Positions 2,939 to 39,626 are shown, counted from the first letter of the stretch. The stretch is 64,000 bases of DNA from Escherichia coli (GCF_001677475.2 NZ_CP015229.1), one strand, 5' to 3'. Notes: generated by a model from the letters alone, not told the origin. Numbers and translations: made by a program.

Positions 2939-4066
2939 TTAACCCGCTAAATGCTCGCGCTTCAGATACTCTTCGCTTTGCATCTCTTGCAGACGTGACA
3001 GGCAACGCTGGAACTCAAATTTCAGCCGCTCGCCCTGATAAATGTCATATAGCGGCACTTCTGCACTCACCACTAATTTGACATGGCGCTCGTAAAACTC
3101 ATCCACCAGCGCAATAAAGCGCCGCGCTTCGCTCTCCATCAACCGCGTCATAACTGGTACATCAAACAACATGACCGTATGAAAGAGGCGTGAGAGCGCA
3201 ATATAGTCATGCTGACTGCGGGCGTCGACGCACAGCGTAGTAAAAGAGACCGCCAGCGTCTGGTTCTCGACGCCCATTGTCGCCAATGGCCGATGGTTGA
3301 TTTCTAATGTCGGTGAATTTTCTCGTTTCGCCCCCGCCAGCGCCAACCATAGTTTATCCATTTGCGCCCGGGTTTCATCGTTGAGGGGCGAAAGCCACAG
3401 ATGCGCCTGAGTGAGTGTACGCAGTCGATAATCAACACCAGCGTCCACGTTCATTACATCACAATGCTGTTTAATGGCATCGATTGCAGGCAAAAAACGC
3501 GCACGTTGTAGGCCATTTCGATAAAGTTCGTCCGGCGGAATATTTGACGTCGCTACCAGGGTAATACCGCGGGCGAACAGGGCTTTCATCAGACCGCCAA
3601 GTAGCATGGCGTCGGTAATATCAGAAACAAAAAATTCGTCAAAACAGAGCACGTCAGTTTCGGCTTTAAAGCGATCGGCAATAATTTCCAGCGGATCGCT
3701 TTGGCCTTGTAATTCGGTCAGCTCTTCGTGCACCCGCAGCATAAAACGGTGAAAGTGCAGACGCTGTTTCCGCTCTCCCGGCAGGCTTTGATAGAAAAGG
3801 TCCATCAGCCAGGTTTTCCCGCGTCCTACACCGCCCCACATATATAAGCCACGCACTGGCGTATGCTTTGTGTCTTCCCGTTTACCCCACAGCTTACCGA
3901 CCCGCGCCATTAGCCCACTCGTCCTGGGGGCTGGTGGCGTGCTATTGATGAGTTCCTGATAAATAATTTCCAAGCGGCTGACGGCCTCTTTTTGAACGTC
4001 GTCGGGTTGATGGCTGCCTTCATTGAGCGCCTTCAGGTATTGCGATGTTGGGGTAACGCTTTGCAT
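2939..4066 (-). CDS. zapE: AFG1-family ATPase, cell division factor ZapE (YhcM)
   Basis: 375-aa ORF with P-loop GVGRGKT, recognised as YhcM/ZapE. Confidence 0.93.
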   Translation of the reverse strand: MQSVTPTSQYLKALNEGSHQPDDVQKEAVSRLEIIYQELINSTPPAPRTSGLMARVGKLWGKREDTKHTPVRGLYMWGGVGRGKTWLMDLFYQSLPGERKQRLHFHRFMLRVHEELTELQGQSDPLEIIADRFKAETDVLCFDEFFVSDITDAMLLGGLMKALFARGITLVATSNIPPDELYRNGLQRARFLPAIDAIKQHCDVMNVDAGVDYRLRTLTQAHLWLSPLNDETRAQMDKLWLALAGAKRENSPTLEINHRPLATMGVENQTLAVSFTTLCVDARSQHDYIALSRLFHTVMLFDVPVMTRLMESEARRFIALVDEFYERHVKLVVSAEVPLYDIYQGERLKFEFQRCLSRLQEMQSEEYLKREHLAG

Positions 4067-4259
4067 GATCTTATTGTTATTCCTTGAATAATCGGTGCGC
4101 CGTTGTTCACGGTTGACGAAAAAAAGGCCGTTCTACACTACGCGATATGCAGTCGGGATTCCACTTCTGTGGAATTAACGGTTATAGTGGCATAATCAGC
4201 CGCAGGCATGGAGCCTGAAGCCAACACCCTACGGAAACAAAAGACAACGGGAGATGTTC

Positions 4260-4658
4260 ATGACCTGGGAATATGCGCTAATTGGGTTAGTCGTCGGCAT
4301 CATTATTGGTGCTGTGGCCATGCGTTTTGGTAATCGTAAACTACGCCAGCAACAGGCGTTGCAGTACGAACTGGAAAAGAATAAAGCTGAACTGGACGAG
4401 TATCGCGAAGAGCTGGTTAGCCACTTTGCCCGCAGCGCGGAATTACTGGATACCATGGCGCACGACTATCGCCAGCTGTATCAACACATGGCGAAAAGCT
4501 CCAGCAGCCTGCTGCCGGAACTGTCTGCTGAAGCAAACCCGTTCCGTAATCGTCTGGCAGAGTCTGAAGCTAGCAACGATCAGGCACCGGTGCAGATGCC
4601 TCGCGACTATTCTGAAGGCGCGTCCGGCCTGCTGCGTACTGGCGCGAAGCGCGACTAA
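4260..4658 (+). CDS. zapG: Inner-membrane protein YhcB / ZapG
   Basis: ORF trimmed by 2 codons to ATG 4260 preceded by GGGAG; N-terminal TM helix then coiled-coil, recognised as YhcB. Confidence 0.9.
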   Translation: MTWEYALIGLVVGIIIGAVAMRFGNRKLRQQQALQYELEKNKAELDEYREELVSHFARSAELLDTMAHDYRQLYQHMAKSSSSLLPELSAEANPFRNRLAESEASNDQAPVQMPRDYSEGASGLLRTGAKRD

Positions 4659-4811
4659 TTTATTTTTCGGGCGCAGCCATTGCGCCCTCCTCTTCTTTCC
4701 CTCCCCGACTATCATTTAATCTGGTGTCTCATTGTTAGCCGTCTGAAAATTCAATAACATCAAACTGTTTTGAATCTCTTTTCTTATCATTCAGGTACGA
4801 GAGCAGGAATA

Positions 4812-6179
4812 ATGAAAAAACAAACCCAGCTGTTGAGTGCATTAGCGTTAAGTGTCGGGTTAACTCTCTCGGCGTCTTTTCAGGCCGTTGCGTCGATTCC
4901 AGGCCAGGTTGCCGATCAGGCCCCTCTCCCCAGTCTGGCCCCAATGCTGGAAAAAGTGCTTCCGGCAGTGGTGAGCGTACGGGTGGAAGGAACGGCCAGT
5001 CAGGGACAGAAAATCCCGGAAGAATTCAAAAAGTTTTTTGGTGATGATTTACCGGATCAACCTGCACAACCCTTCGAAGGTTTAGGCTCCGGTGTCATCA
5101 TCAACGCCAGTAAAGGCTATGTGCTGACTAACAACCATGTGATTAATCAGGCACAGAAAATCAGTATTCAGCTCAATGATGGGCGCGAGTTTGATGCAAA
5201 ACTGATTGGTAGCGATGACCAGAGCGATATCGCCCTGTTGCAAATTCAAAACCCGAGCAAATTAACGCAAATCGCTATTGCCGACTCCGATAAATTGCGC
5301 GTCGGTGATTTTGCCGTGGCGGTCGGTAACCCATTTGGCCTTGGGCAAACCGCCACCTCTGGCATTGTTTCCGCATTAGGCCGCAGTGGGTTGAATCTTG
5401 AAGGTCTGGAAAACTTTATCCAGACAGATGCTTCCATTAACCGCGGTAACTCCGGCGGTGCACTGTTAAACCTTAACGGTGAGTTAATTGGCATCAACAC
5501 GGCAATCCTTGCGCCTGGCGGCGGGAGCGTCGGGATTGGATTTGCCATCCCCAGTAATATGGCGCGAACACTGGCGCAGCAGCTTATCGACTTTGGTGAA
5601 ATCAAACGCGGTCTGTTAGGCATCAAAGGCACCGAGATGAGTGCCGATATCGCCAAAGCCTTCAACCTTGACGTGCAGCGTGGCGCGTTTGTCAGCGAAG
5701 TGTTGCCAGGTTCTGGCTCGGCGAAAGCGGGCGTCAAAGCGGGCGATATTATTACCAGCCTCAACGGCAAACCGCTGAATAGCTTTGCTGAGTTGCGCTC
5801 TCGTATCGCGACCACCGAGCCGGGCACGAAAGTGAAGCTTGGCCTGCTGCGTAACGGCAAACCACTGGAAGTAGAAGTGACGCTCGATACCAGCACCTCT
5901 TCGTCGGCCAGCGCTGAAATGATCACGCCAGCGCTTGAAGGTGCAACGTTGAGCGATGGTCAGCTAAAAGATGGCGGCAAAGGTATTAAGATCGATGAGG
6001 TTGTCAAAGGAAGCCCAGCTGCTCAGGCTGGCTTGCAAAAAGACGATGTGATCATTGGCGTCAACCGCGATCGGGTGAACTCGATTGCTGAAATGCGTAA
6101 AGTGCTGGCGGCAAAACCGGCCATCATCGCCCTGCAAATTGTACGCGGCAATGAAAGCATCTATCTGCTGATGCGTTAA
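4812..6179 (+). CDS. degQ: Periplasmic serine endoprotease DegQ (HtrA family, two PDZ domains)
   Basis: Trimmed to ATG 4812 (MKKQTQLLSALALSVGL signal peptide); trypsin-like motif GNSGGAL. Confidence 0.95.
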   Translation: MKKQTQLLSALALSVGLTLSASFQAVASIPGQVADQAPLPSLAPMLEKVLPAVVSVRVEGTASQGQKIPEEFKKFFGDDLPDQPAQPFEGLGSGVIINASKGYVLTNNHVINQAQKISIQLNDGREFDAKLIGSDDQSDIALLQIQNPSKLTQIAIADSDKLRVGDFAVAVGNPFGLGQTATSGIVSALGRSGLNLEGLENFIQTDASINRGNSGGALLNLNGELIGINTAILAPGGGSVGIGFAIPSNMARTLAQQLIDFGEIKRGLLGIKGTEMSADIAKAFNLDVQRGAFVSEVLPGSGSAKAGVKAGDIITSLNGKPLNSFAELRSRIATTEPGTKVKLGLLRNGKPLEVEVTLDTSTSSSASAEMITPALEGATLSDGQLKDGGKGIKIDEVVKGSPAAQAGLQKDDVIIGVNRDRVNSIAEMRKVLAAKPAIIALQIVRGNESIYLLMR

Positions 6180-6268
6180 TGTCGTAAACCGGGCATCAGG
6201 CTGACGTGTGATGTCCGGTTAACTCGTGGTATGCTGCTGCCGTTCCCTTTTTTAATGACGCCTCCATC

Positions 6269-7336
6269 ATGTTTGTGAAGCTCTTACGTTCCGTTGCGAT
6301 TGGATTAATTGTCGGCGCTATTCTGCTGGTTGCCATGCCTTCGCTGCGCAGCCTTAACCCGCTTTCCACTCCGCAATTTGACAGTACCGATGAGACGCCT
6401 GCCAGCTATAATCTGGCGGTTCGCCGCGCCGCGCCAGCGGTGGTTAACGTTTACAACCGTGGTTTGAACACCAACTCTCACAACCAGCTTGAGATCCGCA
6501 CCCTGGGATCCGGTGTAATCATGGATCAACGCGGTTATATCATCACCAATAAACACGTCATCAACGACGCCGATCAGATCATCGTCGCCTTACAGGATGG
6601 ACGTGTATTTGAAGCATTGCTGGTGGGATCTGACTCTCTAACCGATCTGGCGGTACTTAAAATTAATGCCACTGGCGGTTTACCTACCATTCCGATCAAT
6701 GCACGTCGCGTACCGCACATTGGCGACGTAGTACTGGCGATCGGTAACCCGTACAACCTCGGGCAGACCATTACCCAGGGGATTATTAGTGCTACGGGTC
6801 GAATCGGTCTGAACCCGACCGGGCGGCAAAACTTCCTGCAAACCGATGCTTCCATTAACCACGGTAACTCTGGCGGCGCGCTGGTGAACTCGCTGGGAGA
6901 ACTGATGGGCATTAATACGCTGTCGTTTGATAAGAGTAACGATGGCGAAACGCCGGAAGGTATCGGCTTTGCGATTCCTTTCCAGTTAGCAACCAAAATT
7001 ATGGATAAGCTGATCCGCGATGGTCGCGTGATCCGCGGCTACATTGGTATCGGCGGACGTGAGATCGCACCACTGCACGCGCAGGGCGGTGGTATAGATC
7101 AACTGCAAGGGATCGTGGTTAATGAAGTGTCACCTGACGGCCCGGCGGCGAATGCGGGTATTCAGGTCAACGATCTGATTATTTCGGTGGATAACAAACC
7201 GGCCATCTCTGCTCTGGAGACGATGGATCAGGTGGCGGAAATTCGCCCTGGTTCGGTGATCCCGGTTGTAGTGATGCGTGATGATAAGCAGTTAACGCTG
7301 CAGGTCACCATTCAGGAATATCCGGCAACCAATTAA
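6269..7336 (+). CDS. degS: Periplasmic serine endoprotease DegS (sigma-E stress sensor protease)
   Basis: 355-aa ORF, N-terminal anchor, GNSGGAL motif and a single PDZ domain. Confidence 0.95.
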   Translation: MFVKLLRSVAIGLIVGAILLVAMPSLRSLNPLSTPQFDSTDETPASYNLAVRRAAPAVVNVYNRGLNTNSHNQLEIRTLGSGVIMDQRGYIITNKHVINDADQIIVALQDGRVFEALLVGSDSLTDLAVLKINATGGLPTIPINARRVPHIGDVVLAIGNPYNLGQTITQGIISATGRIGLNPTGRQNFLQTDASINHGNSGGALVNSLGELMGINTLSFDKSNDGETPEGIGFAIPFQLATKIMDKLIRDGRVIRGYIGIGGREIAPLHAQGGGIDQLQGIVVNEVSPDGPAANAGIQVNDLIISVDNKPAISALETMDQVAEIRPGSVIPVVVMRDDKQLTLQVTIQEYPATN

Positions 7337-7352
7337 GTCGAGTGCTCAAAAC

Positions 7353-7383
7353 AAAAAACCGGAGTCTGTGCTCCGGTTTTTTA
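7353..7383. terminator. Bidirectional intrinsic terminator between degS and mdh
   Basis: aaaaaaccggagtctgtgctccggtttttta: perfect hairpin with A-run and T-run. Confidence 0.7.
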
Positions 7384-7398
7384 TTATCCGCTAATCAA

Positions 7399-8412
<1,014 letters not shown>

Positions 8413-8710
8413 TTACAATGACCACATCTCAAGAATGTGTAGTCACGCAAGTTTAGCGTTTATGCATTTAATTGCCGTAATCAGGAACCTAACTTACGTA
8501 ATTAACAGTCGCTTATGCATTAGCGCAACATTCCAACAGGTGGTGACAATATACCCTACCGTTCAGCCAAAACAACATCAATTTGATAACAATTAATTTA
8601 CTTTTAAGCAGAATTTGCATGCCGTGACGCAGGCATGTTTCTCAATAACGAAATTTGATAAAATCCCGCTCTTTCATAACATTATTTCAGCCTTCTTCAG
8701 GGCTGACTGT

Positions 8711-8748
8711 TTGCATAAAAATTCATCTGTATGCACAATAATGTTGTA
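8711..8748 (+). promoter_or_regulatory. Putative tandem ARG boxes (ArgR operator) overlapping the argR promoter
   Basis: tTGCATaaaaATTCAtc followed by a weaker ATGCAcaataATGTT repeat about 25 bp upstream of argR; matches the ARG-box half-site pattern TGAAT/ATTCA. Confidence 0.4.
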
Positions 8749-8768
8749 TCAACCACCATATCGGGTGA

Positions 8769-9242
<474 letters not shown>

Positions 9243-9606
9243 TCTCTGCCCCGTCGCTTCTGGCGGCGGGGAAAATGTTGCTTATCCCTCTCAACCCCCT
9301 GCTTTCCCCTGCGATTAATTTAACGAATAGTGCGTTTTACTGCGACATGTCATTCACACAATGAATACATACGGTAAAAAAAGCACATTATGCAAAATTC
9401 ATTATCTAATTGAAAATACTAGAATTAAAAATAAATAACCGTGTTTTTAATTCTTTTTTGTTATTAAAATTCACATTTTTAATACTTAGTATCAACTGAA
9501 ACAGTTAGCGTGGTATTAATTAGTTCAATAATTAGTGTATACTTGATTTTGTGATAAGGGTCACGAAACAAAGACCCAGCAAAAAGATTATGTTGAGGTA
9601 AAAATC

Positions 9607-9870
9607 ATGAAAATCAAAACCACTGTTGCTGCATTAAGCGTACTTTCTGTTCTCTCTTTCAGTGCATTCGCTGCCGACTCCATTGATGCTGCACAAGCAC
9701 AAAATCGTGAAGCAATCGGGACCGTATCCGTAAGTGGTGTGGCGTCTTCGCCAATGGATATGCGTGAAATGCTGAACAAAAAAGCAGAAGAGAAAGGCGC
9801 AACGGCCTACCAGATTACGGAAGCTCGTAGCGGTGACACCTGGCACGCTACGGCTGAACTGTACAAATAA
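9607..9870 (+). CDS. yhcN: Small periplasmic stress protein YhcN (DUF1471/YdgH-BhsA family)
   Basis: 87-aa ORF with signal peptide, preceded by a 360-bp AT-rich region. Confidence 0.85.
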   Translation: MKIKTTVAALSVLSVLSFSAFAADSIDAAQAQNREAIGTVSVSGVASSPMDMREMLNKKAEEKGATAYQITEARSGDTWHATAELYK

Positions 9871-9895
9871 ACCCTCATCGTCTTGTCCGACGATA

Positions 9896-9922
9896 TTGCC
9901 CCCGGTTCGGGGGCTTTTTTTT
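9896..9922 (+). terminator. Intrinsic terminator after yhcN
   Basis: gcccccggttcgggggc followed by tttttttt. Confidence 0.7.
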
Positions 9923-9925
9923 GCG

Positions 9926-10198
9926 CTAATGACGAACATTAAAACGCAAATGCCCTTCCAGCTCTTCCTCTGCCTCATCAAACAGCAATATTAACGCACC
10001 AAAACGGCGACGCGTTTTCTCTCCCAGATGAACAAATTCAATCTCAAGTGGTAGCGGCAGGACATCGTTCATTAACACATCCCATAGTGAGTCGAGATCG
10101 CGTACCTTATCTTTCGCCAGACCAAATGTTTGGCTAAAGTCACGATAAAAATCCTCCTGACTCTCAATCTCATCAAAATCAAAGGTATAAATATTCAT
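9926..10198 (-). CDS. yhcO: Barstar-like protein YhcO
   Basis: 90-aa acidic ORF recognised as YhcO. Confidence 0.85.
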
Positions 10199-10289
10199 CT
10201 GTTGCCACCGTCACGTTTCGCGGCGAGTTCTGCCGTGCATCGCTAAGTATAGCCATGAAAAAACCGACGCTTTTGGCGTCGGTTTTGAC

Positions 10290-12257
10290 TTAACTATCGG
10301 TCAACGCATGTTGATACTTATGGAGCATCCCCGCCAGCCGATGTACCGGTTCCGTCACCTGCGGTGGCGCTTGCCAGATGCGTAGCTTTTCCTGGTAGAT
10401 TTCCAGTTCTTCCAGCAACTGGCCAAAGTACCGACGACGTTTATCATCGCTACGGGCAGATATCACATGGTCTGCTGTGCGGCGCATTTGTCGGTGAAAC
10501 GCCGATAAATCCTCGTTAACCGGGATCGGCGCATCACGCAGGCGCTGGTGCGCGATAATCATCGTCAGCGCCAGGCGAAATTTCGGCAAATCCCCTGGGA
10601 ACTTATTCATCAGCAAAAACAGCTGCTGATAAAGTGCCGGGAGGTGGTTCTCTTTACGACGTGCCACATTGGTAGTCATCGCGGAAACAGCGGCAGAAAC
10701 AAACTGATTAAGCAGTACACGTCCAGTCCTGTCGCGCGATTTATCCCGCACCAGCAAAATAACGGTGAACGCGAGCACACAGCCGACGATTTGCCCTAAT
10801 GCGCTGTCGAGAAACTGACTGAAATGGAAAGTCATCGGGTTATCCAGCACGATAATATTTATGGTGCTGGCCAGTGCCCCCATCGAGCCCAGTCGCCGTT
10901 TCTGTACTTCTATACCGAGGAAGAATCCCAGCACTGCCAGGCTAATGCACAGCAGCAACATGCTCTGTTGGGTATTAGGGATAATCACCAAAAAGTAGAG
11001 CAGCCCTAACGGCAGCGCGGCCAGCGTCCCGTAGATAAAGTCGATCGCCACCATGCGTGGATTCGGCAAACGCATTGCCAGTGACGTCACTACCGCAATC
11101 ATCACCATTGCACCACTGCCGGAAGTCCAGCCCGTCCACAGCCAGAAAAGCGTGCCCAGAATGCAGGAAAGTGTGGTTCGCCAGAAGTTAACCATCGCAT
11201 GATGACGTTCGGCTGACTCTACTTTGACTTCCGGTTCGCCTTGCAGGATCTCTTCTTCGGTGGCGTTGATTTTTGTGTTACTGATAACGCCGCGCTTGAG
11301 AAGCTGATAACGCGTTGCCGCCGCAACCCAGCTATAAATGGTGACAGGCGTTTCCCGTTCCCCGGTCCAGGCGATCACTCTCCGCAGGCGTTTGAGCTGC
11401 TTGTGGACGTCCTGCGCGGTTTCTACCGGCGTGTCAAAAAATTCGCGGAAAGTATCAGTGATCAATTCCGGGCGCGTATTCTGAATAAGATAAGTTTCGC
11501 AGGATTGGGTAATCAGCGTCAGCGATAGCGTATTGATCGCTTTTAAACGTCGATTGGCCCGCGCCCAGCGGGAAGATTCCATATTCAGGTTGCTGCGCAT
11601 GCCTTGTAGCGCCGTGGTGCGTCGCACCAGGTCGCCCCAGGCTTTATCGACAACTTCACCATCGCCATGCTTGATACAGAGTTGCATTAATTGATATTGC
11701 GCGACGAGCAAACTTTCCAGCTCTCGATCCACTTCTTGTTTGATCGATCGCGGAGAAAAAAGCAAATCAGCCATAATCGCACACACAATACCGATAACGA
11801 TCTCGCTACAACGTTCGACAGCAAACTGCGGCGTAAGCAATGGTTCCGGCTGAATGGTGATCACAATGATCAGCGCGGTATAACCGGCCAGCCCCCACGC
11901 ATACGAGTTTTCTATTCGTACCAGCGAGGATATCCAGGTGCAAAAACCGGCCCAGATACAGCACACCAGAATCATCAATAATGGTGCGCGGATCATCGCA
12001 ATAATGATCACCAGTCCGGCAATACAGCCAATAAATGTGCCGATGATGCGCAAAAAGCCACGATAGCGTATCGCGCCAGAGTACGGTTCACCTCCCGCAG
12101 CAAAGGCCGGACCGGCGGCAACAATCGCCGCTGTCAGTACCGCCCAGCGTGGCGTTTCCAGCTGGAAGTGAAAGCCAACAAACAGCGCCAGTACAATGGC
12201 GGTCGCCAGTTTTACCGCAAAGCGAATATGTTGGTTAGCAATGGAGAAAATACCCAT
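10290..12257 (-). CDS. aaeB: p-Hydroxybenzoic acid efflux pump subunit AaeB
   Basis: 655-aa polytopic membrane protein; aaeXAB gene order. Confidence 0.93.
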
Positions 12258-29224: not shown

Positions 29225-29695
29225 ATGGATATTCGTAAGATTAAAAAACTGATCGAGCTGGTTGAAGAATCAGGCATCTCCGAACTGGAAATTTCTGAAG
29301 GCGAAGAGTCAGTACGCATTAGCCGTGCAGCTCCTGCCGCAAGTTTCCCTGTGATGCAACAAGCTTACGCTGCACCAATGATGCAGCAGCCAGCTCAATC
29401 TAACGCAGCCGCTCCGGCGACCGTTCCTTCCATGGAAGCGCCAGCAGCAGCGGAAATCAGTGGTCACATCGTACGTTCCCCGATGGTTGGTACTTTCTAC
29501 CGCACCCCAAGCCCGGACGCAAAAGCGTTCATCGAAGTGGGTCAGAAAGTAAACGTGGGCGATACCCTGTGCATCGTTGAAGCCATGAAAATGATGAACC
29601 AGATCGAAGCGGACAAATCCGGTACCGTGAAAGCAATTCTGGTCGAAAGTGGACAACCGGTAGAATTTGACGAGCCGCTGGTCGTCATCGAGTAA
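29225..29695 (+). CDS. accB: Biotin carboxyl carrier protein of acetyl-CoA carboxylase
   Basis: 156-aa ORF, biotinylation motif EAMKMMN, Ala/Pro-rich linker. Confidence 0.97.
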
Positions 29696-29705
29696 CGAGG
29701 CGAAC

Positions 29706-31055
29706 ATGCTGGATAAAATTGTTATTGCCAACCGCGGCGAGATTGCATTGCGTATTCTTCGTGCCTGTAAAGAACTGGGCATCAAGACTGTCGCTGTGCA
29801 CTCCAGCGCGGATCGCGATCTAAAACACGTATTACTGGCAGATGAAACGGTCTGTATCGGCCCTGCTCCGTCAGTAAAAAGTTATCTGAACATCCCGGCA
29901 ATCATCAGCGCCGCTGAAATCACCGGCGCAGTAGCAATCCATCCGGGTTACGGCTTCCTCTCCGAGAACGCCAACTTTGCCGAGCAGGTTGAACGCTCCG
30001 GCTTTATCTTCATCGGCCCGAAAGCAGAAACCATTCGCCTGATGGGCGACAAAGTATCCGCAATCGCGGCGATGAAAAAAGCGGGCGTCCCTTGCGTACC
30101 GGGTTCTGACGGCCCGCTGGGCGACGATATGGATAAAAACCGTGCCATTGCTAAACGCATTGGTTATCCGGTGATTATCAAAGCCTCCGGCGGCGGCGGT
30201 GGTCGCGGTATGCGCGTAGTGCGCGGCGACGCTGAACTGGCACAATCCATCTCCATGACCCGTGCGGAAGCGAAAGCTGCTTTCAGCAACGATATGGTTT
30301 ACATGGAGAAATACCTGGAAAATCCTCGCCACGTCGAGATTCAGGTACTGGCTGACGGTCAGGGCAACGCTATCTATCTGGCGGAACGTGACTGCTCCAT
30401 GCAGCGCCGCCACCAGAAAGTGGTCGAAGAAGCACCAGCACCGGGCATTACCCCGGAACTGCGTCGCTACATCGGCGAACGTTGCGCTAAAGCGTGTGTT
30501 GATATCGGCTATCGCGGTGCAGGTACTTTCGAGTTCCTGTTCGAAAACGGCGAGTTCTATTTCATCGAAATGAACACCCGTATTCAGGTAGAACACCCGG
30601 TTACAGAAATGATCACCGGCGTTGACCTGATCAAAGAACAGCTGCGTATCGCTGCCGGTCAACCGCTGTCGATCAAGCAAGAAGAAGTTCACGTTCGCGG
30701 CCATGCGGTGGAATGTCGTATCAACGCCGAAGATCCGAACACCTTCCTGCCAAGTCCGGGCAAAATCACCCGTTTCCACGCACCTGGCGGTTTTGGCGTG
30801 CGTTGGGAGTCTCATATCTACGCGGGCTACACCGTACCGCCGTACTATGACTCAATGATCGGTAAGCTGATTTGCTACGGTGAAAACCGTGATGTGGCGA
30901 TTGCCCGCATGAAGAATGCGCTGCAGGAGCTGATCATCGACGGTATCAAAACCAACGTTGATCTGCAGATCCGCATCATGAATGACGAGAACTTCCAGCA
31001 TGGTGGCACTAACATCCACTATCTGGAGAAAAAACTCGGTCTTCAGGAAAAATAA
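29706..31055 (+). CDS. accC: Biotin carboxylase
   Basis: ORF trimmed to ATG 29706 giving 449 aa ([25 protein letters not shown]...). Confidence 0.97.
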
Positions 31056-31146: not shown

Positions 31147-32193
31147 CTAACGGTAGCCTGCAATTTCCGCTTTCAACGCGCTCATTTCAGCATCGCCATC
31201 AACAATTCCCAGCTCAAAGCAGTATTTCTTTGTTTCCCCTGGCTCTATAAAGGGCAGACGCCCCTGCGCTCGTTCTTTATCACGACCGTCAGGAAAACTA
31301 TTGCTGACCTCCAGCCCCATAACATATTCACCCGCGCCTAAATTTTTCCACTGGATAAAGTTGGGTAGCTGCATGGTGTCGAATTTCTCGTAAATTCCCC
31401 ACCCCAGTTCAGCGTTCACCAGCGCAATTTTACTCATCCCCTGACTGTCGCTATTCAAGGTGAGATAGTAAACCTGCTCGTCAAAACCGGGCTGTGGGGT
31501 ACAAATCTCCAGATGACTGGTTAACCCTTCCGCCGCATGCGGAGTTCGTGGCGTTACGCTTTTAGCCGACAGCAAGATTTCTGCCTGTGGCGATAATAAA
31601 GGCCAGCCGTAATTAAAGTGATAAAGAATTTGCAGCGGCTGGCGGGTGAAACCATGATTAGTCACCTCGTCTTCAATGCGCAGCACATTTTCGCCATAAC
31701 GGCAGCGAATGGTCCTTTCCAGCGTCAGATTTTCACCGAACAATCGCGTTTCCCGTACTTTGCCATTGATGACAAATTCAATGCCGTCGTCGGTCCGTTC
31801 TGTGCGATACCCCACCTCTTCTGCTGGAGTCGCAGCCAAACGCCCATGTAACCCCAGCGTTTCTCCTTCATCCTCACAGGGCGTGCCAATGTAGCTAAGT
31901 CCGCAGGTAGTCAGTAACCCCGCGTAAAAGCTACGTAAAAACCCGTTGCCCTGAGACTCGAAAAAAGCGGGGGCGACAATGCCGTTGGGGGTGATAAAAG
32001 AGAGCGCAGTGTCCTTGTAGCTGGCCCATGCAATATCCAGCGCGCGATCTTTTACCACCGTAAATGCCAGTCCCGCACCAGTACGGACATCAAACGCTTC
32101 TGTACCCTTTGCTCTGCCACTACGTAACTCATAGTGTTTAATTCCGGCAACCTGCGAGAGATCGCCAATCCACGACCAAATTTCGTTTTTCAT
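31147..32193 (-). CDS. Island gene: conserved protein of unknown function, galactose-mutarotase-like / possibly DUF4432 family
   Basis: 348-aa ORF; start overlaps the stop of the upstream kinase gene by 4 nt (ATGA); no TM or signal peptide. Family assignment is from pattern recognition only and is low confidence. Confidence 0.7.
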   Translation of the reverse strand: MKNEIWSWIGDLSQVAGIKHYELRSGRAKGTEAFDVRTGAGLAFTVVKDRALDIAWASYKDTALSFITPNGIVAPAFFESQGNGFLRSFYAGLLTTCGLSYIGTPCEDEGETLGLHGRLAATPAEEVGYRTERTDDGIEFVINGKVRETRLFGENLTLERTIRCRYGENVLRIEDEVTNHGFTRQPLQILYHFNYGWPLLSPQAEILLSAKSVTPRTPHAAEGLTSHLEICTPQPGFDEQVYYLTLNSDSQGMSKIALVNAELGWGIYEKFDTMQLPNFIQWKNLGAGEYVMGLEVSNSFPDGRDKERAQGRLPFIEPGETKKYCFELGIVDGDAEMSALKAEIAGYR

Positions 32194-33152
32194 TGTGCTG
32201 CTTCCCGAATGGACATGTCATGGCGCTGGATGAACGTTTCGATTTCCGCAAGGCGAGACGTTCCCTCCATTGGGCCACGTCGGGTAACAGCCAGTGCACC
32301 GCAGGCGTTGGCATATTGTAATGCCCGATGGGCGTCAAACCCTAGCTGGCGGCAGGCAATCCACGCGCCACCAAAGCAGTCTCCCGCACCGGTCGGGTCA
32401 ACTTCTTCCACCGGATAGCTCTCAACATGAAACTGCTCATTCGCGGAGTAGTAACTGGCTCCTTGATTGCCGCGCTTCACAATCACCTCTTTAACACCTT
32501 CTTCAAGAAAACCAGCGATTGCACGCTCCGGCGTCGAATGTGGCGACAAGAGCAACACTTCGCCCTCGCTGGGCATATAGATATCCGTTAACTCAAGAAC
32601 AAAGTGGAGGGCGTCACGCATTTCTGGAATATCGAGCATCTCTTTTCGAATATTAGGGTCGAAAGAAATAACACCACCATTTGCTTTAACGATGGTTACC
32701 GCTTTTTTTACTGCGTCTACCATATGAAACGAAAACAGGGATGAACCCATAATATGAAAATGGGTACAGTCCTTCAGAATATTTTCATCAACATGCTGCG
32801 CCGATAATTTACCGCAAGCGGCATTCTTGATATTAAAAATAAAATCGCGATCGCCAGAGTTATGATAAGTAACAAAGGCGCTCCCGGTAGCTTCCAGAGG
32901 TAAGACTGAAATCCCCCTGATATCCACACCGTCAGCAGCCAGACGATGTATATTAATATCACCAAAGCCATCATTCCCCACACAGCTAATGATGCCGCAC
33001 GGAACGCCAAGACGTGTCACCTGGTCGATAAAAATAGCGGGCGCACCACTGGGATAAGGGCCGTTCCAGATACCTGGTTGATCAAATGGCTGGCCGATTT
33101 TACTCGCCATAATTTCAACCAAAATTTCTCCAATTGTGAAGACCTTACTCAT
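32190..33152 (-). CDS. Island gene: pfkB/ribokinase-family carbohydrate kinase (kinase 1)
   Basis: 320-aa ORF with pfkB signature DPTGAGDCFGGAW near the C-terminus and an N-terminal Gly-rich substrate lid. Confidence 0.85.
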   Translation of the reverse strand: MSKVFTIGEILVEIMASKIGQPFDQPGIWNGPYPSGAPAIFIDQVTRLGVPCGIISCVGNDGFGDINIHRLAADGVDIRGISVLPLEATGSAFVTYHNSGDRDFIFNIKNAACGKLSAQHVDENILKDCTHFHIMGSSLFSFHMVDAVKKAVTIVKANGGVISFDPNIRKEMLDIPEMRDALHFVLELTDIYMPSEGEVLLLSPHSTPERAIAGFLEEGVKEVIVKRGNQGASYYSANEQFHVESYPVEEVDPTGAGDCFGGAWIACRQLGFDAHRALQYANACGALAVTRRGPMEGTSRLAEIETFIQRHDMSIREAAQ

Positions 33153-33173
33153 ATGATTAATTCCTTGAAATGA

Positions 33174-34163
33174 TTAGCTGCGTTTTCTTTTATTTCTTAC
33201 GTCAAAATAAACGGCTACAAGAATGACTAATCCTTTAACCACCATCTGGTAAAAATAGGGAACATTCATTAAGTTCATGCCATTATTAATAACGCCGATG
33301 GTTAATGCGCCGATCACCGTCCCCACCACGGTTCCATAGCCGCCGTTCAGGCTGGTGCCTCCCAGTACAGCCGCGGCAATAGCATCCAGTTCGTAGCTCA
33401 ACGCGGAATTCGGTTGCCCGGAATAGAGGCGTGAGGCGAGGATCATCCCGCTGATACCTGCCAGCACGGCTGTAATCATAAAGACTTTAATTTTCAAGCG
33501 GGTGACATTTATCCCTGAATAAACTGCCGCTTCTTTATTACCACCAGTGATATAAATTTTTCGTCCAAAGGTTGTTTTAGTAAGAATGAAGTGGTTAATC
33601 AGCAATAAGATGATTAATATCCAGATAGGAATAGGTATATAGAGAAATTCTCCATTCCCCAGTGCCAGAAAGGCATCATCTTTAATCATGATGGGCATAC
33701 CATCGGTCACTATATAAGCGATACCACGGAAGATCCCCATTGTAGCAACGGTGACAATAAACGAAGGGATACCCGCTATAGCCGTCAAGCCACCATTTAT
33801 CATCCCCAGAGCCAGGGCTGCAATAATGGATAATGGGACCAATAAAATAAATGGAATTCCCCATGAAGCCCCAAGCGCAGCAAATGTGCCAATCAATGCA
33901 ATGGTTGAACCGACCGATAAATCAATATCGCCAAGCAAAAGTACATAAGTCATTCCATAGGCGGTAATTGCAATTATCGAAACCTGAAGAATAATATTAG
34001 TAATGTTATTGGCAGTAAAAAAACTGTCATTAATAAAACTGAACAGAATGATTAACACCACCATTCCACTGAGGATACCGCCATATTGCCTGAAGACTTT
34101 TTTAAAATTATTTGCAATGGGAATTTCCGAAGGTTTCGGACTGGCAAGAGTTTTCTCTGTCAT
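33174..34163 (-). CDS. Island gene: sugar ABC transporter permease (RbsC-like, CUT2 family)
   Basis: 329-aa highly hydrophobic ORF; abuts the ATPase gene (34163/34164). Confidence 0.85.
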   Translation of the reverse strand: MTEKTLASPKPSEIPIANNFKKVFRQYGGILSGMVVLIILFSFINDSFFTANNITNIILQVSIIAITAYGMTYVLLLGDIDLSVGSTIALIGTFAALGASWGIPFILLVPLSIIAALALGMINGGLTAIAGIPSFIVTVATMGIFRGIAYIVTDGMPIMIKDDAFLALGNGEFLYIPIPIWILIILLLINHFILTKTTFGRKIYITGGNKEAAVYSGINVTRLKIKVFMITAVLAGISGMILASRLYSGQPNSALSYELDAIAAAVLGGTSLNGGYGTVVGTVIGALTIGVINNGMNLMNVPYFYQMVVKGLVILVAVYFDVRNKRKRS

Positions 34164-35663
34164 TTAACGTACTCCTGTTGCAGCGGTCATTACCTGTGTC
34201 TGCGTTAAATTTTCACATGAATAAATATCGGCAATCGTTTTATTACGCATTACCACCAGACGATCGCTAAGTGCCATGACTTCTGGCAGTTCAGAGGACA
34301 CCAGAATAATTGCTGTCCCTGCCGCAGCCAGTTGACGTATCACGTTATAGATTTCAAATTTTGCGCCGACATCTACTCCGCGCGTTGGCTCATCGAGCAA
34401 TAAAATACGCGGAGTTTTCTCCAGCCACTTCGATAACACGATTTTCTGTTGATTACCGCCGCTCAGCGCTCCCACTGCCTGATGTACAGAACTCACTTTA
34501 GTGTTCATTCTGGCAATAGATTGCAGCGTCTTCGCCTCTTCTTGTCGGTGATTGATGAGTCCCATCCGCGAAGCGTTATATTGAAACGCCACATGGTGCG
34601 TGTTCATATTGACGTCGTGCATCAGCACTAACCCTTCTTCCTTGCGGTTTTCGGTCACAAAAGCAATGCCATGATCAATAGCCTGTTTGGGATTAGCGAT
34701 CCTGACTTCCTTACCATCAATCAACACAGTCCCGTGATACGAAACGAGGCCAAATAGCGCCTTCATCACATCGGAACGCCCGGCCCCCACCAGGCCAAAA
34801 AATCCGAGGACTTCCCCCGGACGCACAGCGAAACTGACCTCTTTAAAAAGCGAAGGATGGGAAAGGTTTTTTACTTCCAGTTTTGCAGGAACATTTTCAT
34901 CCGGCTTTTCCCCAAGACGTGCTGGCCAAATATTTTTCATTTCCCGACCAACCATTTGGGCAATCAAATGCTGGATATCACTGTTTTTCTTTTCATGCGT
35001 AGCGATATACTCACCGTCGCGGATCACCGAAATATCATCTGAAATCCGCATAATTTCATCCATGCGATGAGAGATATAAATAACCGCACAGCCTCGCTGC
35101 TTTAATTTTTCAATAATGTTAAACAGAATCTCTGCTTCATTATCACTTAGCGAAGATGTCGGTTCATCCATAATCACGACATCCGCTGCATAGCTTAAGG
35201 CTTTGGCAATTTCTACCAGTTGCCTATGTGCCATCGACATATCGCCGACCATTTCCAGCGGATCCAGAGGGATGCCCAGTTCCGCGAGGAGATTCTGGCA
35301 ATCTGCGAGCATTTTTTTATCATTAATAATGCCAAAACGTCGCAGTTCATTATTGGCATAAATATTTTCCGCCACGGTCATATTATTACTCAGGCTCAGT
35401 TCCTGAAAAATAATCGCAATCCCTAACTGGCGAGAATGCTGCGGATTATTAATGGTAATGGTTTCACCACGTAGTGTTATCGTTCCCTGGGTTGGCGGAT
35501 AAACACCGGCGAGTATTTTCATTAATGTCGATTTACCGGCACCATTCTCGCCTAATAAAGTATGCACCCGCCCTTTACGTAAAGAGAGTGTAATATTTTT
35601 TAATGCCTGAACATGACCAAATGTCTTCGCAATATGCGAAACATCAAGAATAACATCCGTCAT
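34164..35663 (-). CDS. Island gene: sugar ABC transporter ATP-binding protein with duplicated ABC domains (RbsA/MglA-like)
   Basis: 499-aa ORF; Walker A GENGAGKST in the N-terminal half and a second, degenerate nucleotide-binding domain. Confidence 0.85.
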   Translation of the reverse strand: MTDVILDVSHIAKTFGHVQALKNITLSLRKGRVHTLLGENGAGKSTLMKILAGVYPPTQGTITLRGETITINNPQHSRQLGIAIIFQELSLSNNMTVAENIYANNELRRFGIINDKKMLADCQNLLAELGIPLDPLEMVGDMSMAHRQLVEIAKALSYAADVVIMDEPTSSLSDNEAEILFNIIEKLKQRGCAVIYISHRMDEIMRISDDISVIRDGEYIATHEKKNSDIQHLIAQMVGREMKNIWPARLGEKPDENVPAKLEVKNLSHPSLFKEVSFAVRPGEVLGFFGLVGAGRSDVMKALFGLVSYHGTVLIDGKEVRIANPKQAIDHGIAFVTENRKEEGLVLMHDVNMNTHHVAFQYNASRMGLINHRQEEAKTLQSIARMNTKVSSVHQAVGALSGGNQQKIVLSKWLEKTPRILLLDEPTRGVDVGAKFEIYNVIRQLAAAGTAIILVSSELPEVMALSDRLVVMRNKTIADIYSCENLTQTQVMTAATGVR

Positions 35664-35723
35664 AATGACCTCGGTGTCACAACAAAACGTCGATAACGTT
35701 TTGTTGTGAAATGAAGATGTTTA

Positions 35724-36620
35724 TTATTTACCTGTATAAACGCCGGGTTGTACCGGGATCATTTTTTCTACCGGTTTACCATTGAGGTGATCAACAGCGG
35801 CATCAATGGCTTTAGCACCCATTTGATCGGGATATTGCCGAATCACGGCCGCAAACGTTTTTTCACTGTCAACGGCATCACGCGCTTCTTTCATGCCGTC
35901 AAAACCAATGATTTTGATGTTGTCGTTATGCGCAGATTTCGCTGCGATAACCGCTGCCAACGCCGCATCATCACCAAAGCCAAACAGACCATTCAGGTTG
36001 GCGTTGGCCTGCATAATGTTTTGCGCAGTCGTTAACGCTTCAGCCCGCGTTATACCTGGCTGTTCAGCAACAATTCTAATATTCGGTGTCTCGCTTAACC
36101 CTTTCTTAAAACCATCAACGCGCGCAACCACCGATTGTAGTGCCGGATAAGAAATAATGGCTACAGTACCTTTGCCATTCAAAAGTTTGCCCATTAACTT
36201 GCCTGCTTCAACGCCTCCCGCGTAGTTATCGGTCGCAACATGCGATACGACCGGAACGCCTTCCGCAGCGACGTCGACGGTGATAACGGGAATACCGGCC
36301 TTATCGGCTTTAATTATCGCCGCCTGGACGCCTTTCGAATCAACCGGAGAGATAATAATGGCATCCACTTTTTTAGTAATAAAATCCTCAACATCAGAAA
36401 GTTGTTTGTTTAAATCCTGATTGGCAATAGAGACACTTAAATTGACATTGTCTTTTTTTGCCTCTTCTTTCATGGCATTCGCAAGATCAATATAGAAAGG
36501 ATGTTGCTGTGTTAATAATGACGCACCAATTTTATACTCTTTTGCCAATGAACTTTGCGAGAATAATGCCAGGCTCACCAACATAGCTGAACCAAGTAAT
36601 TTAATATTTTTCATAAACAA
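35724..36620 (-). CDS. Island gene: periplasmic sugar-binding protein (type I PBP, RbsB-like) with signal peptide
   Basis: 298-aa ORF; N-terminal signal peptide ending ...SSLA-KEYKIG; start may be ATG two codons downstream. Confidence 0.8.
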   Translation of the reverse strand: MFMKNIKLLGSAMLVSLALFSQSSLAKEYKIGASLLTQQHPFYIDLANAMKEEAKKDNVNLSVSIANQDLNKQLSDVEDFITKKVDAIIISPVDSKGVQAAIIKADKAGIPVITVDVAAEGVPVVSHVATDNYAGGVEAGKLMGKLLNGKGTVAIISYPALQSVVARVDGFKKGLSETPNIRIVAEQPGITRAEALTTAQNIMQANANLNGLFGFGDDAALAAVIAAKSAHNDNIKIIGFDGMKEARDAVDSEKTFAAVIRQYPDQMGAKAIDAAVDHLNGKPVEKMIPVQPGVYTGK

Positions 36621-36649
36621 TCCTCATTGTTTTTGTAGGTTACAACGTA

Positions 36650-37828
<1,179 letters not shown>

Positions 37829-38659
37829 ATGAAGAGTGTTAACGTGCCGAGAAAATCGTCTAACCTACTGAAACGCAGATTAAAAATTGCAGAAATTGTT
37901 GCCGCCCAGGGTGAAATCAAAGTTGATGACTTATCTGCGCAACTTGGTGTCTCTGGCGTGACGATCCGCGGCGATCTCAGTTATCTGGAGCAACAGGGAT
38001 ATTTAAAGCGATCATTTGGCGGTGCTATTGCGACACCACTCTCCTCTGAACCAGAAGCGATACAACCGATCGCGCCATTGTCTCTGGCACAACAAATGGA
38101 AATAGCACGACATTGCGCACGGTTAATTCGGGATCGTGACACGCTATTTCTTGGACATGGGACAATCTGCCGTAAGATCATTCCCTTGCTCAGCGAAGTG
38201 AAAAAACTGCGTCTGATCACCAACGATCCCGAACATGCGCTGCTGGCAAATCAGTTTATTGATGGCGAAATAATACTGGCTGGCAGTGAAATGCTGCGCC
38301 CCGACACCGCACTGGCCGGAAAACCGCTTGAACAGGCACTTCAGCATTTCACCATTACACATAGCATTCTGGAAATCAGCCATCTGGATGCTGATGGTAC
38401 TTTAAATATCAACGTTCCCAGACTTGCCGCTGCCTGGCAGCTCTGTTTCGATCATGCCCAAAATAAGACAGTTATCGTTGCCGCCGACCCTGCGCCATCA
38501 ACGGCTGCTATCGGGCATTTGCATCAGGCAGAAAATGTGATCGTCAGCCGCAGCATTAACGAACAATATCAGCAACAATTGCAGTCGGCTGATTTCGTTA
38601 TCCTTTATACCAGTAATGAGTGCTTTACCTGGTCCAATCGCGAAAGGCTTCAGGAATGA
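37829..38659 (+). CDS. Island gene: DeoR-family transcriptional regulator
   Basis: 276-aa ORF; N-terminal HTH (LSAQLGVSGVTIRGDLSYLEQQGYLKR) and C-terminal sugar-phosphate sensor domain; exact start uncertain. Confidence 0.8.
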   Translation: MKSVNVPRKSSNLLKRRLKIAEIVAAQGEIKVDDLSAQLGVSGVTIRGDLSYLEQQGYLKRSFGGAIATPLSSEPEAIQPIAPLSLAQQMEIARHCARLIRDRDTLFLGHGTICRKIIPLLSEVKKLRLITNDPEHALLANQFIDGEIILAGSEMLRPDTALAGKPLEQALQHFTITHSILEISHLDADGTLNINVPRLAAAWQLCFDHAQNKTVIVAADPAPSTAAIGHLHQAENVIVSRSINEQYQQQLQSADFVILYTSNECFTWSNRERLQE

Positions 38660-38669
38660 GAGGGGTTTT

Positions 38670-39626
38670 GTGACAATAACTATCTGCGCTATGGGCGAAT
38701 TGCTGGCCGAGTTTTTGTCCCGCAACCCACATCAAAAATTCACTCAGCCTGGAGAGTTTATCGGGCCATTTCCCAGCGGTGCGCCAGCAATTTTTGCTGC
38801 TCAGGTGGCAAAACTGTCCCATCGGGCCATCTTCTTTGGATGTGTTGGTAATGATGATTTTGGCCGACTCATTATAGAGCGTCTCCGTCATGAAGGTGTC
38901 ATTACCGATGGGATTCGCGTTATGAACAATGCCGTCACAGGTACGGCGTTCGTGAGTTATCAAAATCCCCAGCAGCGGGATTTCGTCTTTAATATCCCTA
39001 ACAGCGCCTGCGGTTTGTTTACTGCTGAGCACATTGATAAGGATCTGCTAAAACAGTGTAACCATCTCCATATTGTGGGCTCATCGTTGTTCTCATTTCG
39101 CATGATCGATGTCATGCGTAAAGCAATAACGACGATCAAATCGGCTGGCGGCACCGTTTCTTTCGATCCCAATATTCGCAAAGAGATGCTGAGCATTCCT
39201 GAAATGGCGCAGGCCCTCGATTATTTGATTGAATATACGGATATTTTTATCCCCAGCGAAAGCGAACTCCCTTTCTTCGCGCGTCACAAAAATCTGCCAG
39301 AAGAACAGATTGTTAGCGATCTTCTCCACGGCGGCGTAAAACATGTGGCGATAAAACGCGCCCAGCGTGGGGCCAGCTATTACAAGCTTAAAAACGGTAC
39401 ATTACACGCCCAGCATGTTACAGGCCACGATATCGAAATTATCGATCCAACGGGTGCAGGCGACTGCTTTGGCGCAACGTTTATCACTCTTTTCTTATCC
39501 GGTTTCCCGGCACATAAGGCACTGCAATATGCAAATGCCAGCGGCGCGCTCGCCGTAATGCGGCAAGGTCCGATGGAAGGGATATCCTCACTGGCTGACA
39601 TTGAAGACTTTTTGCAGCAGCACTGA
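38670..39626 (+). CDS. Island gene: second pfkB-family carbohydrate kinase (kinase 2), paralogous to kinase 1
   Basis: ORF track starts at 38616 and overlaps the regulator; trimmed to in-frame GTG 38670 with GAGGGG RBS, which aligns its N-terminus with kinase 1. Signature DPTGAGDCFGATF. Confidence 0.8.
   Translation: MTITICAMGELLAEFLSRNPHQKFTQPGEFIGPFPSGAPAIFAAQVAKLSHRAIFFGCVGNDDFGRLIIERLRHEGVITDGIRVMNNAVTGTAFVSYQNPQQRDFVFNIPNSACGLFTAEHIDKDLLKQCNHLHIVGSSLFSFRMIDVMRKAITTIKSAGGTVSFDPNIRKEMLSIPEMAQALDYLIEYTDIFIPSESELPFFARHKNLPEEQIVSDLLHGGVKHVAIKRAQRGASYYKLKNGTLHAQHVTGHDIEIIDPTGAGDCFGATFITLFLSGFPAHKALQYANASGALAVMRQGPMEGISSLADIEDFLQQH

Follow-up and report, generated by a model that had tools for sequence, protein, structure and literature searches.

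TagK, the repressor-linked pfkB-family kinase of the Escherichia coli D-tagatose island, may be a low-level C6 kinase rather than the flux-carrying tagatose-6-phosphate kinase

Background

Ha et al. (2022, iScience; PMC9720028) have shown that an island located at the accC/yhdT site of Escherichia coli Nissle 1917 (locus tags ECOLIN_RS18670-18705) serves D-tagatose utilisation, and Park et al. (2025, Microb Cell Fact; PMC12226905) named its genes tagK, tagR, tagY, tagABC, tagD and tagE. Here we analyse a 64,000-nucleotide stretch of E. coli DNA (NZ_CP015229.1; hereafter the window, with positions counted from its first letter) that carries this island, and in particular the two pfkB-family kinases encoded in it, TagD (kinase 1) and TagK (kinase 2), the latter encoded beside the repressor gene tagR. 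On balance, we lean towards the view that TagK is a low-level, regulator-coupled C6 kinase that makes the effector of TagR, and is not the tagatose-6-phosphate (Tag-6-P) kinase that carries the pathway flux. The island is of applied interest as well, since tagatose is a food sweetener and the tagatose promoter has been used as an inducible system in Nissle.

In Nissle, the six genes that lie on the minus strand in the window rise in expression on D-tagatose, from more than 40-fold up to more than 1000-fold, the change being more than 1000-fold for tagYAB and about 2-fold for tagRK (PMC9720028). Growth on tagatose is abolished by deletion of these six genes, or by in-frame deletion of tagD alone, so that the tagD mutant is tagatose-negative despite the presence of tagK, and the six genes without tagK, supplied on a plasmid, render K-12, B and W strains tagatose-positive (PMC9720028). 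In K-12 carrying pHCE-6, growth is lost in a pfkA deletion and retained in a pfkB deletion, and the route given by the authors runs from tagatose to Tag-6-P by the island kinase, then to tagatose-1,6-bisphosphate (Tag-1,6-bisP) by PfkA, and finally to dihydroxyacetone phosphate (DHAP) and glyceraldehyde-3-phosphate (G3P) by the island aldolase (PMC9720028). In Nissle and the K-12 hosts, tagatose is imported by the ATP-binding cassette (ABC) transporter TagABC, and Tag-6-P is phosphorylated at C1 by the host PfkA. TagD is assigned as the C6 tagatose kinase from genetics, the gene being required for growth, and from homology; TagY is given the aldolase step on grounds of homology, and E. coli also has GatY, to which TagY is 63.7% identical (PMC9720028), and KbaY.

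Differential RNA sequencing (dRNA-seq) in Nissle detected only two transcription start sites in the island, indicating that tagRK and tagYABCDE form two operons, and the promoters Ptag and Preg, a CRP site and two operators were defined by dRNA-seq and alignment (PMC12226905). TagR was identified as a repressor by overexpression and reporter assays, and the functions of the reg-cluster genes were called unexplored (PMC12226905). The catabolic operon is repressed by TagR, with catabolite control added by CRP.

Related tagatose pathways differ from this island in instructive ways. The ABC-type tagatose/galactitol pathway of rhizobia and Burkholderiales (tagABCDE of S. meliloti; A. tumefaciens) has a homologous ABC transporter and a tagatose kinase of the TagD lineage (clade A), 50-61% identical to TagD, but a GatZ/KbaZ-like enzyme epimerises Tag-6-P to fructose-6-phosphate, and the loci contain neither an aldolase nor a kinase of the TagK lineage (clade B). 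The islands of Klebsiella (tagKTH with gatYZ) and Salmonella (STM3251-STM3256) that depend on a phosphotransferase system (PTS) share with the window a clade-B kinase, a DeoR regulator and a divergent GatY-like aldolase, but use the PTS for uptake and phosphorylation to tagatose-1-phosphate (Tag-1-P), have a FruK-type second kinase, and lack the ABC transporter and kinase 1. The name TagK therefore denotes two non-orthologous kinases, the FruK-type Tag-1-P kinase of Klebsiella and Salmonella and the regulator-linked clade-B kinase of Nissle, and this double use invites annotation errors; we follow the Nissle nomenclature. Gram-positive lacABCD follows the same logic from Tag-6-P through Tag-1,6-bisP to trioses, with LacC as a true tagatose-6-phosphate kinase, but LacC is a member of the FruK/PfkB/LacC subfamily (TIGR03168), a model on which both island kinases stay under the threshold, and LacD is a class I aldolase. 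The repressor of that system, LacR, is of the DeoR type and senses tagatose-6-phosphate. In the gat and aga pathways of E. coli, PfkA likewise phosphorylates Tag-6-P and the class II aldolases GatY or KbaY cleave the product, but these aldolases partner GatZ or KbaZ, whereas the island in the window has no GatZ-like gene and its Serratia and Budvicia versions have one.

The region analysed here is the published E. coli D-tagatose utilisation island, with tagRK divergent from tagYABCDE at the accC/yhdT site. It agrees with the Nissle 1917 locus in its eight genes, in their order and orientation (tagE-D-C-B-A-Y on one strand and tagR-K on the other), in its site and in its promoter, CRP and operator elements, and differs in a private 18-nt in-frame deletion in tagY. 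The pathway that had been predicted from the sequence, from a sugar through its 6-phosphate and 1,6-bisphosphate to DHAP and G3P, was right in outline; the sugar is D-tagatose, and the route had already been shown for the Nissle island (PMC9720028). Both the pathway outline and the island are thus published, and what is new here concerns the lineage and the genomic context of TagK, with its conserved motifs and the selection on it: its coupling to the repressor across ABC-, PTS- and LacD-type islands is absent from both reports (PMC9720028, PMC12226905).

Results

Lineage of the two kinases

TagD (320 aa) and TagK (318 aa) are encoded on opposite strands, in the two pfkB reading frames first recognised in the unannotated sequence, and share 52% identity and 68% positives over 311 residues with 6 gap positions (BLASTP, E-value 1e-117), which bears out an earlier estimate by eye of roughly half. 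Most of the blocks said to be common to them do occur in both (SGAPAIF, RDFxFNI, SSLFSF, SFDPNIRKEML.IPEM, DPTGAGDCFG and ALQYAN.GALAV.R.GPMEG), but CVGNDDFG and TGTAFVSY are the versions of TagK only, TagD having CVGNDGFG and TGSAFVTY instead. Both proteins belong to the pfkB family (PF00294), as DPTGAGDCFG is present in each and PF00294 was found on their 99%-identical cluster representatives, and TagD matches PDB entries 3IQ0/3K9E along its whole length (728.6 bits). On the NCBIfam model for tagatose kinase, NF049991 (TagKinase; cut-off 420), TagD and TagK score 414.1 and 345.1 bits, respectively, so both are under the cut-off, although TagD, which falls just short of it, is a genetically defined tagatose kinase. 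The scores are far lower on TIGR03168 (46.0 and 49.5 bits; cut-off 216) and on TIGR03828 (41.6 and 47.7 bits; cut-off 292). Judged by sequence, neither kinase is a member of the FruK/PfkB/LacC subfamily, to which the known Tag-6-P and Tag-1-P kinases belong.

The alignment and phylogeny that the original prediction had called for show that the two kinases are old paralogues in separate clades. TagD groups with its orthologues in enterobacterial ABC operons, and then with the "tagatose kinase" of Burkholderiales, Alteromonadales and rhizobia (58-61% identity), and the lineage of TagK, clade B, is confined to Enterobacterales and Orbales. We rejected a recent duplication within the island, since TagD is nearer to the Burkholderiales tagatose kinases than to TagK and the two fall into separate clades. 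A clean two-clade tree was only partly supported, as clade B was monophyletic in 67 of 100 bootstrap replicates with a FruK outgroup and clade A in 29 of 100.

When 38 clade-A sequences were compared with 46 clade-B sequences, 99 positions that are at least 85% conserved carried the same residue in both clades, and these include every recognisable substrate and ATP motif. The clades are discriminated by 11 positions, mostly with conservative replacements (I/L, I/F, M/L, I/A, T/S, K/R, L/F); clade B has gained no Arg or Lys, and has lost the conserved R268. These data bear on the possibility, named as an alternative in the original prediction, that the two kinases act on different related substrates, TagK serving another ketohexose or polyol-derived sugar (D-psicose, L-sorbose or D-fructose), Tag-1-P, or the salvage of tagatose, with no regulatory purpose. 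Such a division would suit the old paralogy of the two proteins, with their 52% identity and separate clades, and the discriminating changes I10L, I14F, M15L, I42A and T95S adjoin substrate motifs; moreover, cytoplasmic kinases that recapture free sugar, such as ScrK, Mak and Glk, accompany several PTS regulons. Nevertheless, we consider it rather improbable, since the polar residues of the substrate motifs are all the same in both clades, the operons that partner clade-B kinases are always tagatose- or Tag-1,6-bisP-like, and the strict coupling to a repressor gene, described in the next section, would be left unexplained.

Genomic context of the clade-B kinases

We collected 20 related clade-B loci by individual protein look-ups, a scan of one genome per species and a plasmid search; the clade-B and clade-A locus counts given here describe this sample and are not a census. 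All 20 loci share one layout: a DeoR gene is followed on the same strand, after 0-21 nt, by the start of the kinase gene, and the two genes diverge from the catabolic operon. The window shows the same arrangement, within the spacing of about 20 nt downstream of the DeoR gene by which we defined the module: tagK starts at 38670, 10 nt past the tagR stop at 38659. This short gap, the 4-nt overlap of tagE and tagD, and the two start sites mapped in Nissle (PMC12226905) agree with the operon layout deduced earlier, in which kinase 1 belongs to the transporter operon and kinase 2 is co-transcribed with the regulator.

The catabolic operons next to these pairs are of two main types. ABC-type operons, with the aldolase, the ABC transporter and kinase 1, were found at six loci and in the window, the sources being E. 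coli, Yersinia, Serratia, Enterobacter, Superficieibacter and Budvicia. The PTS-type operons, 14 of the 20, encode the aldolase, a 304-306-aa FruK-type kinase, EIIBC and EIIA/HPr without kinase 1, and come from Salmonella, Klebsiella, Rahnella, Erwinia, Enterobacter sp. Ag1, Tatumella, a metagenome-assembled genome labelled Pseudocitrobacter, five Gilliamella, Zophobihabitans and an E. coli IncK2/Z plasmid. The Tatumella locus has no aldolase gene, and the plasmid locus has a class I LacD aldolase in place of the class II enzyme. Between ABC-type and PTS-type loci, including those of Klebsiella and Salmonella, the aldolases are 68-72% identical, the clade-B kinases 57-61% and the regulators 40-43%. 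About 60 clade-A loci among the matches listed, from beta- and alpha-proteobacteria, have the order (DeoR)-ABC-kinase-GatZ-like epimerase, with neither an aldolase nor a second kinase. We regard the TagK lineage as a separate, moderately supported one within the tagatose-kinase family, and its one constant feature is the position of the gene directly after a DeoR repressor gene.

The invariance of this pair and its 0-21 nt spacing, which suggests stoichiometric co-production, could also be read to mean that TagK is a protein partner of TagR, that is, a ligand-sensing paralogue that binds the repressor directly, by analogy with Gal3/Gal1-Gal80 of yeast and FruK-Cra of E. coli. Several clade-specific changes, E222H, R268F, E250 to a hydrophobic residue and D77 to I or N, are not conservative and lie outside the substrate motifs. 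However, the catalytic GAGD and all ATP motifs are strictly conserved, which suggests that catalysis has been retained, and TagR overexpressed alone represses (PMC12226905), so we consider this a quite unlikely explanation.

The locus on the E. coli plasmid pPK8275-145kb (IncK2/Z, conjugative; locus L087) is a PTS-type tagatose island at 3169-10960, flanked by IS3 and IS66. It encodes a DeoR regulator, a clade-B kinase 66% identical to TagK, a FruK-type kinase, a fused EIIBC-EIIA-HPr open reading frame (ORF) and LacD, and also contains a LacC-like ORF that is apparently truncated at its N-terminus. The regulator-kinase DNA of this plasmid occurs in 5 of the 5426 E. coli genomes, all of them avian where the source is stated.

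Proposed role of TagK

From its sequence and context, TagK most probably serves as a C6 kinase for tagatose that is present at a low level at all times, with Tag-1-P possibly a further substrate, and we infer that it is not the flux-carrying Tag-6-P kinase. DeoR-family repressors typically sense phosphorylated sugars, as is the case for DeoR (deoxyribose-5-phosphate), GlpR (glycerol-3-phosphate), FucR (fuculose-1-phosphate) and the lactococcal LacR (tagatose-6-phosphate). In the mechanism that we propose, TagK would be made together with TagR from a weakly expressed, nearly constitutive operon, and would convert the first tagatose molecules entering the cell to Tag-6-P at a time when the catabolic operon, including the high-flux kinase, is repressed more than 1000-fold. 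The constitutive PfkA could take this Tag-6-P on to Tag-1,6-bisP, and the phosphorylated effector, Tag-6-P or Tag-1,6-bisP, would release TagR. Each island would thus have one inducible kinase for flux and one constitutive kinase for sensing, and in PTS-type islands the same C6-kinase chemistry could convert Tag-1-P to Tag-1,6-bisP. Such a model would explain the invariant pairing of repressor and kinase, the non-induction of tagK, the inability of TagK to replace TagD, and the exchangeable catabolic back-end.

More tentatively, and with somewhat less confidence than we place in the role of TagK itself, the DeoR gene and the clade-B kinase gene may constitute a portable sensing module, in which a constitutive C6 kinase makes the effector of its own repressor, or also acts directly on the repressor. 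The back-ends to which this module would have been joined number at least three: ABC transporter, tagatose 6-kinase and class II aldolase; PTS, Tag-1-P kinase and class II aldolase; and PTS, Tag-1-P kinase and the class I aldolase LacD.

The original prediction had proposed that the island kinases carry out both phosphorylations in sequence. On such a model TagD would act first and TagK would be a dedicated Tag-6-P 1-kinase, PfkA being only a substitute in hosts without TagK. The island does encode no other candidate for the conversion of Tag-6-P to Tag-1,6-bisP, and the requirement for pfkA is known only from K-12 with the six-gene plasmid, which is without tagK (PMC9720028); in addition, the clade-B kinase of Salmonella and Klebsiella adjoins gat genes, whose pathway also yields Tag-6-P. 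Nonetheless, most of the evidence disfavours this proposal, and we regard it as unlikely. The six-gene operon suffices for growth and needs host pfkA, and tagK shows an induction of only about 2-fold, where co-induction would be expected of a step that carries the flux. Clade-B kinases are always paired with a DeoR gene, and they are kept in the PTS-type islands of Rahnella, Gilliamella, Erwinia and Zophobihabitans, where there are no gat genes in the fetched flanks and where the route leads from Tag-1-P to Tag-1,6-bisP by the FruK-type kinase, so that Tag-6-P is no intermediate. Phosphorylation of Tag-6-P at C1 would require a reversed orientation of the sugar and a phosphate pocket, while TagD acts on the C6 hydroxyl; yet the sugar-contact motifs of TagK are all the same as those of TagD, and no basic residues have been gained. 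The known Tag-6-P kinases, LacC and PfkB, are in another pfkB subfamily, on whose model (cut-off 216) TagK reaches 49.5 bits. Finally, Salmonella deleted for STM3254, which encodes the FruK-type kinase, grows on neither tagatose nor galactitol (PMC7972205), despite the clade-B gene in its tag island STM3251-STM3256 (PMC6159554), a gene that would correspond to STM3251.

Several points weigh against the reading of TagK as an effector-making kinase. The PTS itself supplies a phosphorylated sugar, so that an extra kinase of this kind is less obviously needed in PTS-type islands, and its action on Tag-1-P there is speculation. Park et al. take free tagatose as the inducer, by assumption (PMC12226905). 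Some Burkholderiales loci have a clade-A pathway kinase after a DeoR gene, so adjacency alone is no proof of a regulatory role. The tree was rooted with a distant outgroup, its support for clade B is only 67 of 100, and clade A, at 29 of 100, is a grade. Lastly, an island of Enterobacter sp. BIGb0383 is without tagK and tagE, so that tagK is dispensable in at least one lineage. This is a natural six-gene island at the same accC/yhdT site (L021, 3556-9945), with tagR divergent from tagY-A-B-C-D. The literature that we searched on 3IQ0/3K9E, STM3251/STM3252, the tagatose genes of Klebsiella oxytoca and random bar-code transposon sequencing (RB-TnSeq) on tagatose contained nothing on the clade-B kinase.

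If TagK does make the effector of TagR, the second kinase would tune the sensitivity and the lag of tagatose induction rather than provide a pathway step, and the retention of a kinase paralogue beside the repressor in many Enterobacterales and in bee-gut Orbales would be explained. The assumed role of free tagatose as the TagR inducer would then need correction, the tuning of tagatose-inducible expression systems would be affected, and annotators and metabolic modellers would no longer have grounds for calling tagK a tagatose-6-phosphate kinase.

Integrity and selection of tagK

The GTG codon at 38670 is preceded by a GAGGGG Shine-Dalgarno sequence at 38660-38665, and 93% of the clade-B relatives begin at its position. 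RefSeq starts tagK at an ATG equivalent to 38691 (311 aa), 21 nt downstream, which would cost the protein its first beta-strand. Since the GAGGGG and GTG pair and the N-termini of these relatives fit better, the RefSeq start is probably wrong, and 7 codons short, and the GTG start given in the original prediction is the better supported one.

The GAGD and ATP motifs of TagK are invariant across 20 diverse relatives. The identity between Escherichia and Yersinia/Serratia orthologues is 67-68% for TagK, 74-75% for TagD and 64-68% for TagR. Between TagK and its orthologues, the nonsynonymous divergence (dN) is 0.11-0.24, far below the synonymous divergence (dS), which is saturated between species, so that the usable measures are dN itself and the qualitative statement that it is far below dS; within E. 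coli, the differences are too few for a ratio (7 nt in tagK). The dN of tagK is 1.3-1.8 times that of tagD. By these sequence criteria, tagK is clearly under purifying selection and functional, and evolves somewhat faster than tagD; as dN is far below dS, it can be considered a maintained gene. A decaying pseudogene was rejected on these grounds, the gene being full-length with invariant catalytic motifs.

The dispensability of tagK for tagatose growth in K-12 hosts, and its faster evolution, could be read to mean that TagK is a redundant leftover duplicate without a role, heading for loss. In line with this, tagK carries a pseudogene annotation in strains S88 and H252, both of phylogroup B2 (PMC9720028), is gone from the BIGb0383 island, and is apparently truncated in Erwinia endophytica. 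However, the gene is maintained intact in Enterobacterales and Orbales alike, its dN being far below dS, its catalytic motifs are all invariant, and the islands of E. coli retain it almost without exception, 1419 of 1422 covering at least 80% of the island; we consider a leftover very improbable. In the Erwinia endophytica locus (L034, 8956-9932), the frame of the clade-B kinase ends at 9678 while the tblastn match reaches 9932, and this copy may be a frameshifted pseudogene.

Control region and TagR

All promoter, CRP and operator elements defined in Nissle were found in the window. The -10 element of Ptag, TAGTTT, is at 37557-37562 on the minus strand, a CRP-like site lies within 37487-37828, and Preg, TTCAAA-16-TATAGT, is at 37783-37810; motif matching placed TagR operator-like repeats at 37513-37531 and 37540-37555. 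The palindrome TTTCA-N3-TGAAA, which is like the TagR operators at 37513-37555 of the window, also occurs in the aldolase-DeoR intergenic regions of five other loci (L007, L009, L013, L017 and L034). This suggests that operator recognition is conserved in several PTS-type islands, though the motif is AT-rich and chance matches are possible.

TagR orthologues match PF08220 (HTH_DeoR) at the N-terminus and PF00455 (DeoRC) at the C-terminus, and thus belong to the DeoR/GlpR family. Among NCBIfam models, TagR gave weak matches to AgaR, GlpR and SrlR, and since all of these are under their cut-offs, it is none of the three; a comparison with the PDB sequences found no relative.

Gene content and distribution of the island

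The island is an 8.5-kb segment with eight intact genes between accC (29667-31055) and yhdT/panF (39701 onward), and its G+C content is 44-46%, against about 51% in the flanks. Its features are listed in Table 1. The two kinase genes had been described as bracketing the island, which does not strictly hold, the outermost gene on the left being tagE. The product of tagE matches PF14486 (DUF4432) with an E-value of 2.9e-104 and is 98.6% identical to its IAI39 orthologue. For TagA, the top NCBIfam match is RbsB, at 162 bits and under its cut-off.

Table 1. Genes and control region of the tag island in the window
Feature	Product or role	Position	Strand	Basis and remarks
tagE	DUF4432 / aldose-1-epimerase-like protein	31147-32193	minus	ORF map; last gene of the catabolic operon
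tagD (kinase 1)	pfkB-family D-tagatose kinase (tagatose to Tag-6-P), pathway enzyme	32190-33152	minus	
tagC	ABC transporter permease	33174-34163	minus	RefSeq annotation of the IAI39 orthologue, 100% identical
tagB	ABC ATPase	34164-35663	minus	ORF map and RefSeq orthologue
tagA	periplasmic sugar-binding protein, RbsB-like	35724-36614	minus	ORF map; start adopted from the RefSeq orthologue
tagY	class II tagatose-1,6-bisphosphate aldolase, GatY-like	36650-37486	minus	TIGR01858
Control region	divergent, between tagY and tagR	37487-37828		
tagR	DeoR/GlpR-family repressor of tagYABCDE	37829-38659	plus	ORF map
tagK (kinase 2)	pfkB-family paralogue co-transcribed with tagR	38670-39626	plus	Nissle nomenclature

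Megablast matched the island in 1422 of the 5426 complete E. coli genomes, with identities of 95-99%; in 1419 of these 1422 the match spans 80% of the island or more. The best matches are 98.3-98.4% identical in nucleotide sequence, and their gene products are annotated identically in RefSeq. The island of the window differs by 1.6-5% from that of any complete E. coli genome in the collection, and its flanks are 99% E. coli. A search for target-site duplications at the island ends gave only a 7-nt match, which is at the level of chance. Taken together, the island is an ordinary, characterised accessory locus for sugar utilisation, typical of E. coli of phylogroups B2 and F.

A 493-aa NCBI protein (P0122) has a kinase 1 domain (PF00294) fused to DUF4432 (PF14486), and this fusion probably stems from some strain in which the 4-nt overlap of tagD and tagE is frameshifted. 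In the ABC-type islands of Serratia fonticola (L004, 1750-3060) and Budvicia diplopodorum (L012), a GatZ/KbaZ-like gene stands where the window has the DUF4432 gene, and the island of Yersinia pseudotuberculosis (L002), which has neither of these genes, is at another chromosomal site.

The aldolase TagY and its deletion

TagY scores 455.1 bits on TIGR01858, the NCBIfam model for class II tagatose-bisphosphate aldolase (cut-off 443.55), in agreement with its initial description as a GatY/KbaY-like aldolase, and the three motifs with the Zn-ligand histidines are present (HLDHH, GTAHG and LHGASG). The private deletion of tagY removes 18 nt in frame between 36999 and 37000, so that the residues VQRTQI are lost and the protein has 278 instead of 284 aa. 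Among the 1403 complete E. coli genomes in which this region is covered, none has the deletion, and the segment is full-length in all seven TagY orthologues from other genera. In an AlphaFold2 model of full-length TagY (pLDDT, the predicted local distance difference test, 88), the deleted residues close helix 157-167 and make the turn into strand 171-175, the strand that leads to the Zn-ligand His180. The deletion lies just ahead of the GTAHG strand and may impair the enzyme, and the tagatose-growth phenotype of the window strain could be altered by it.

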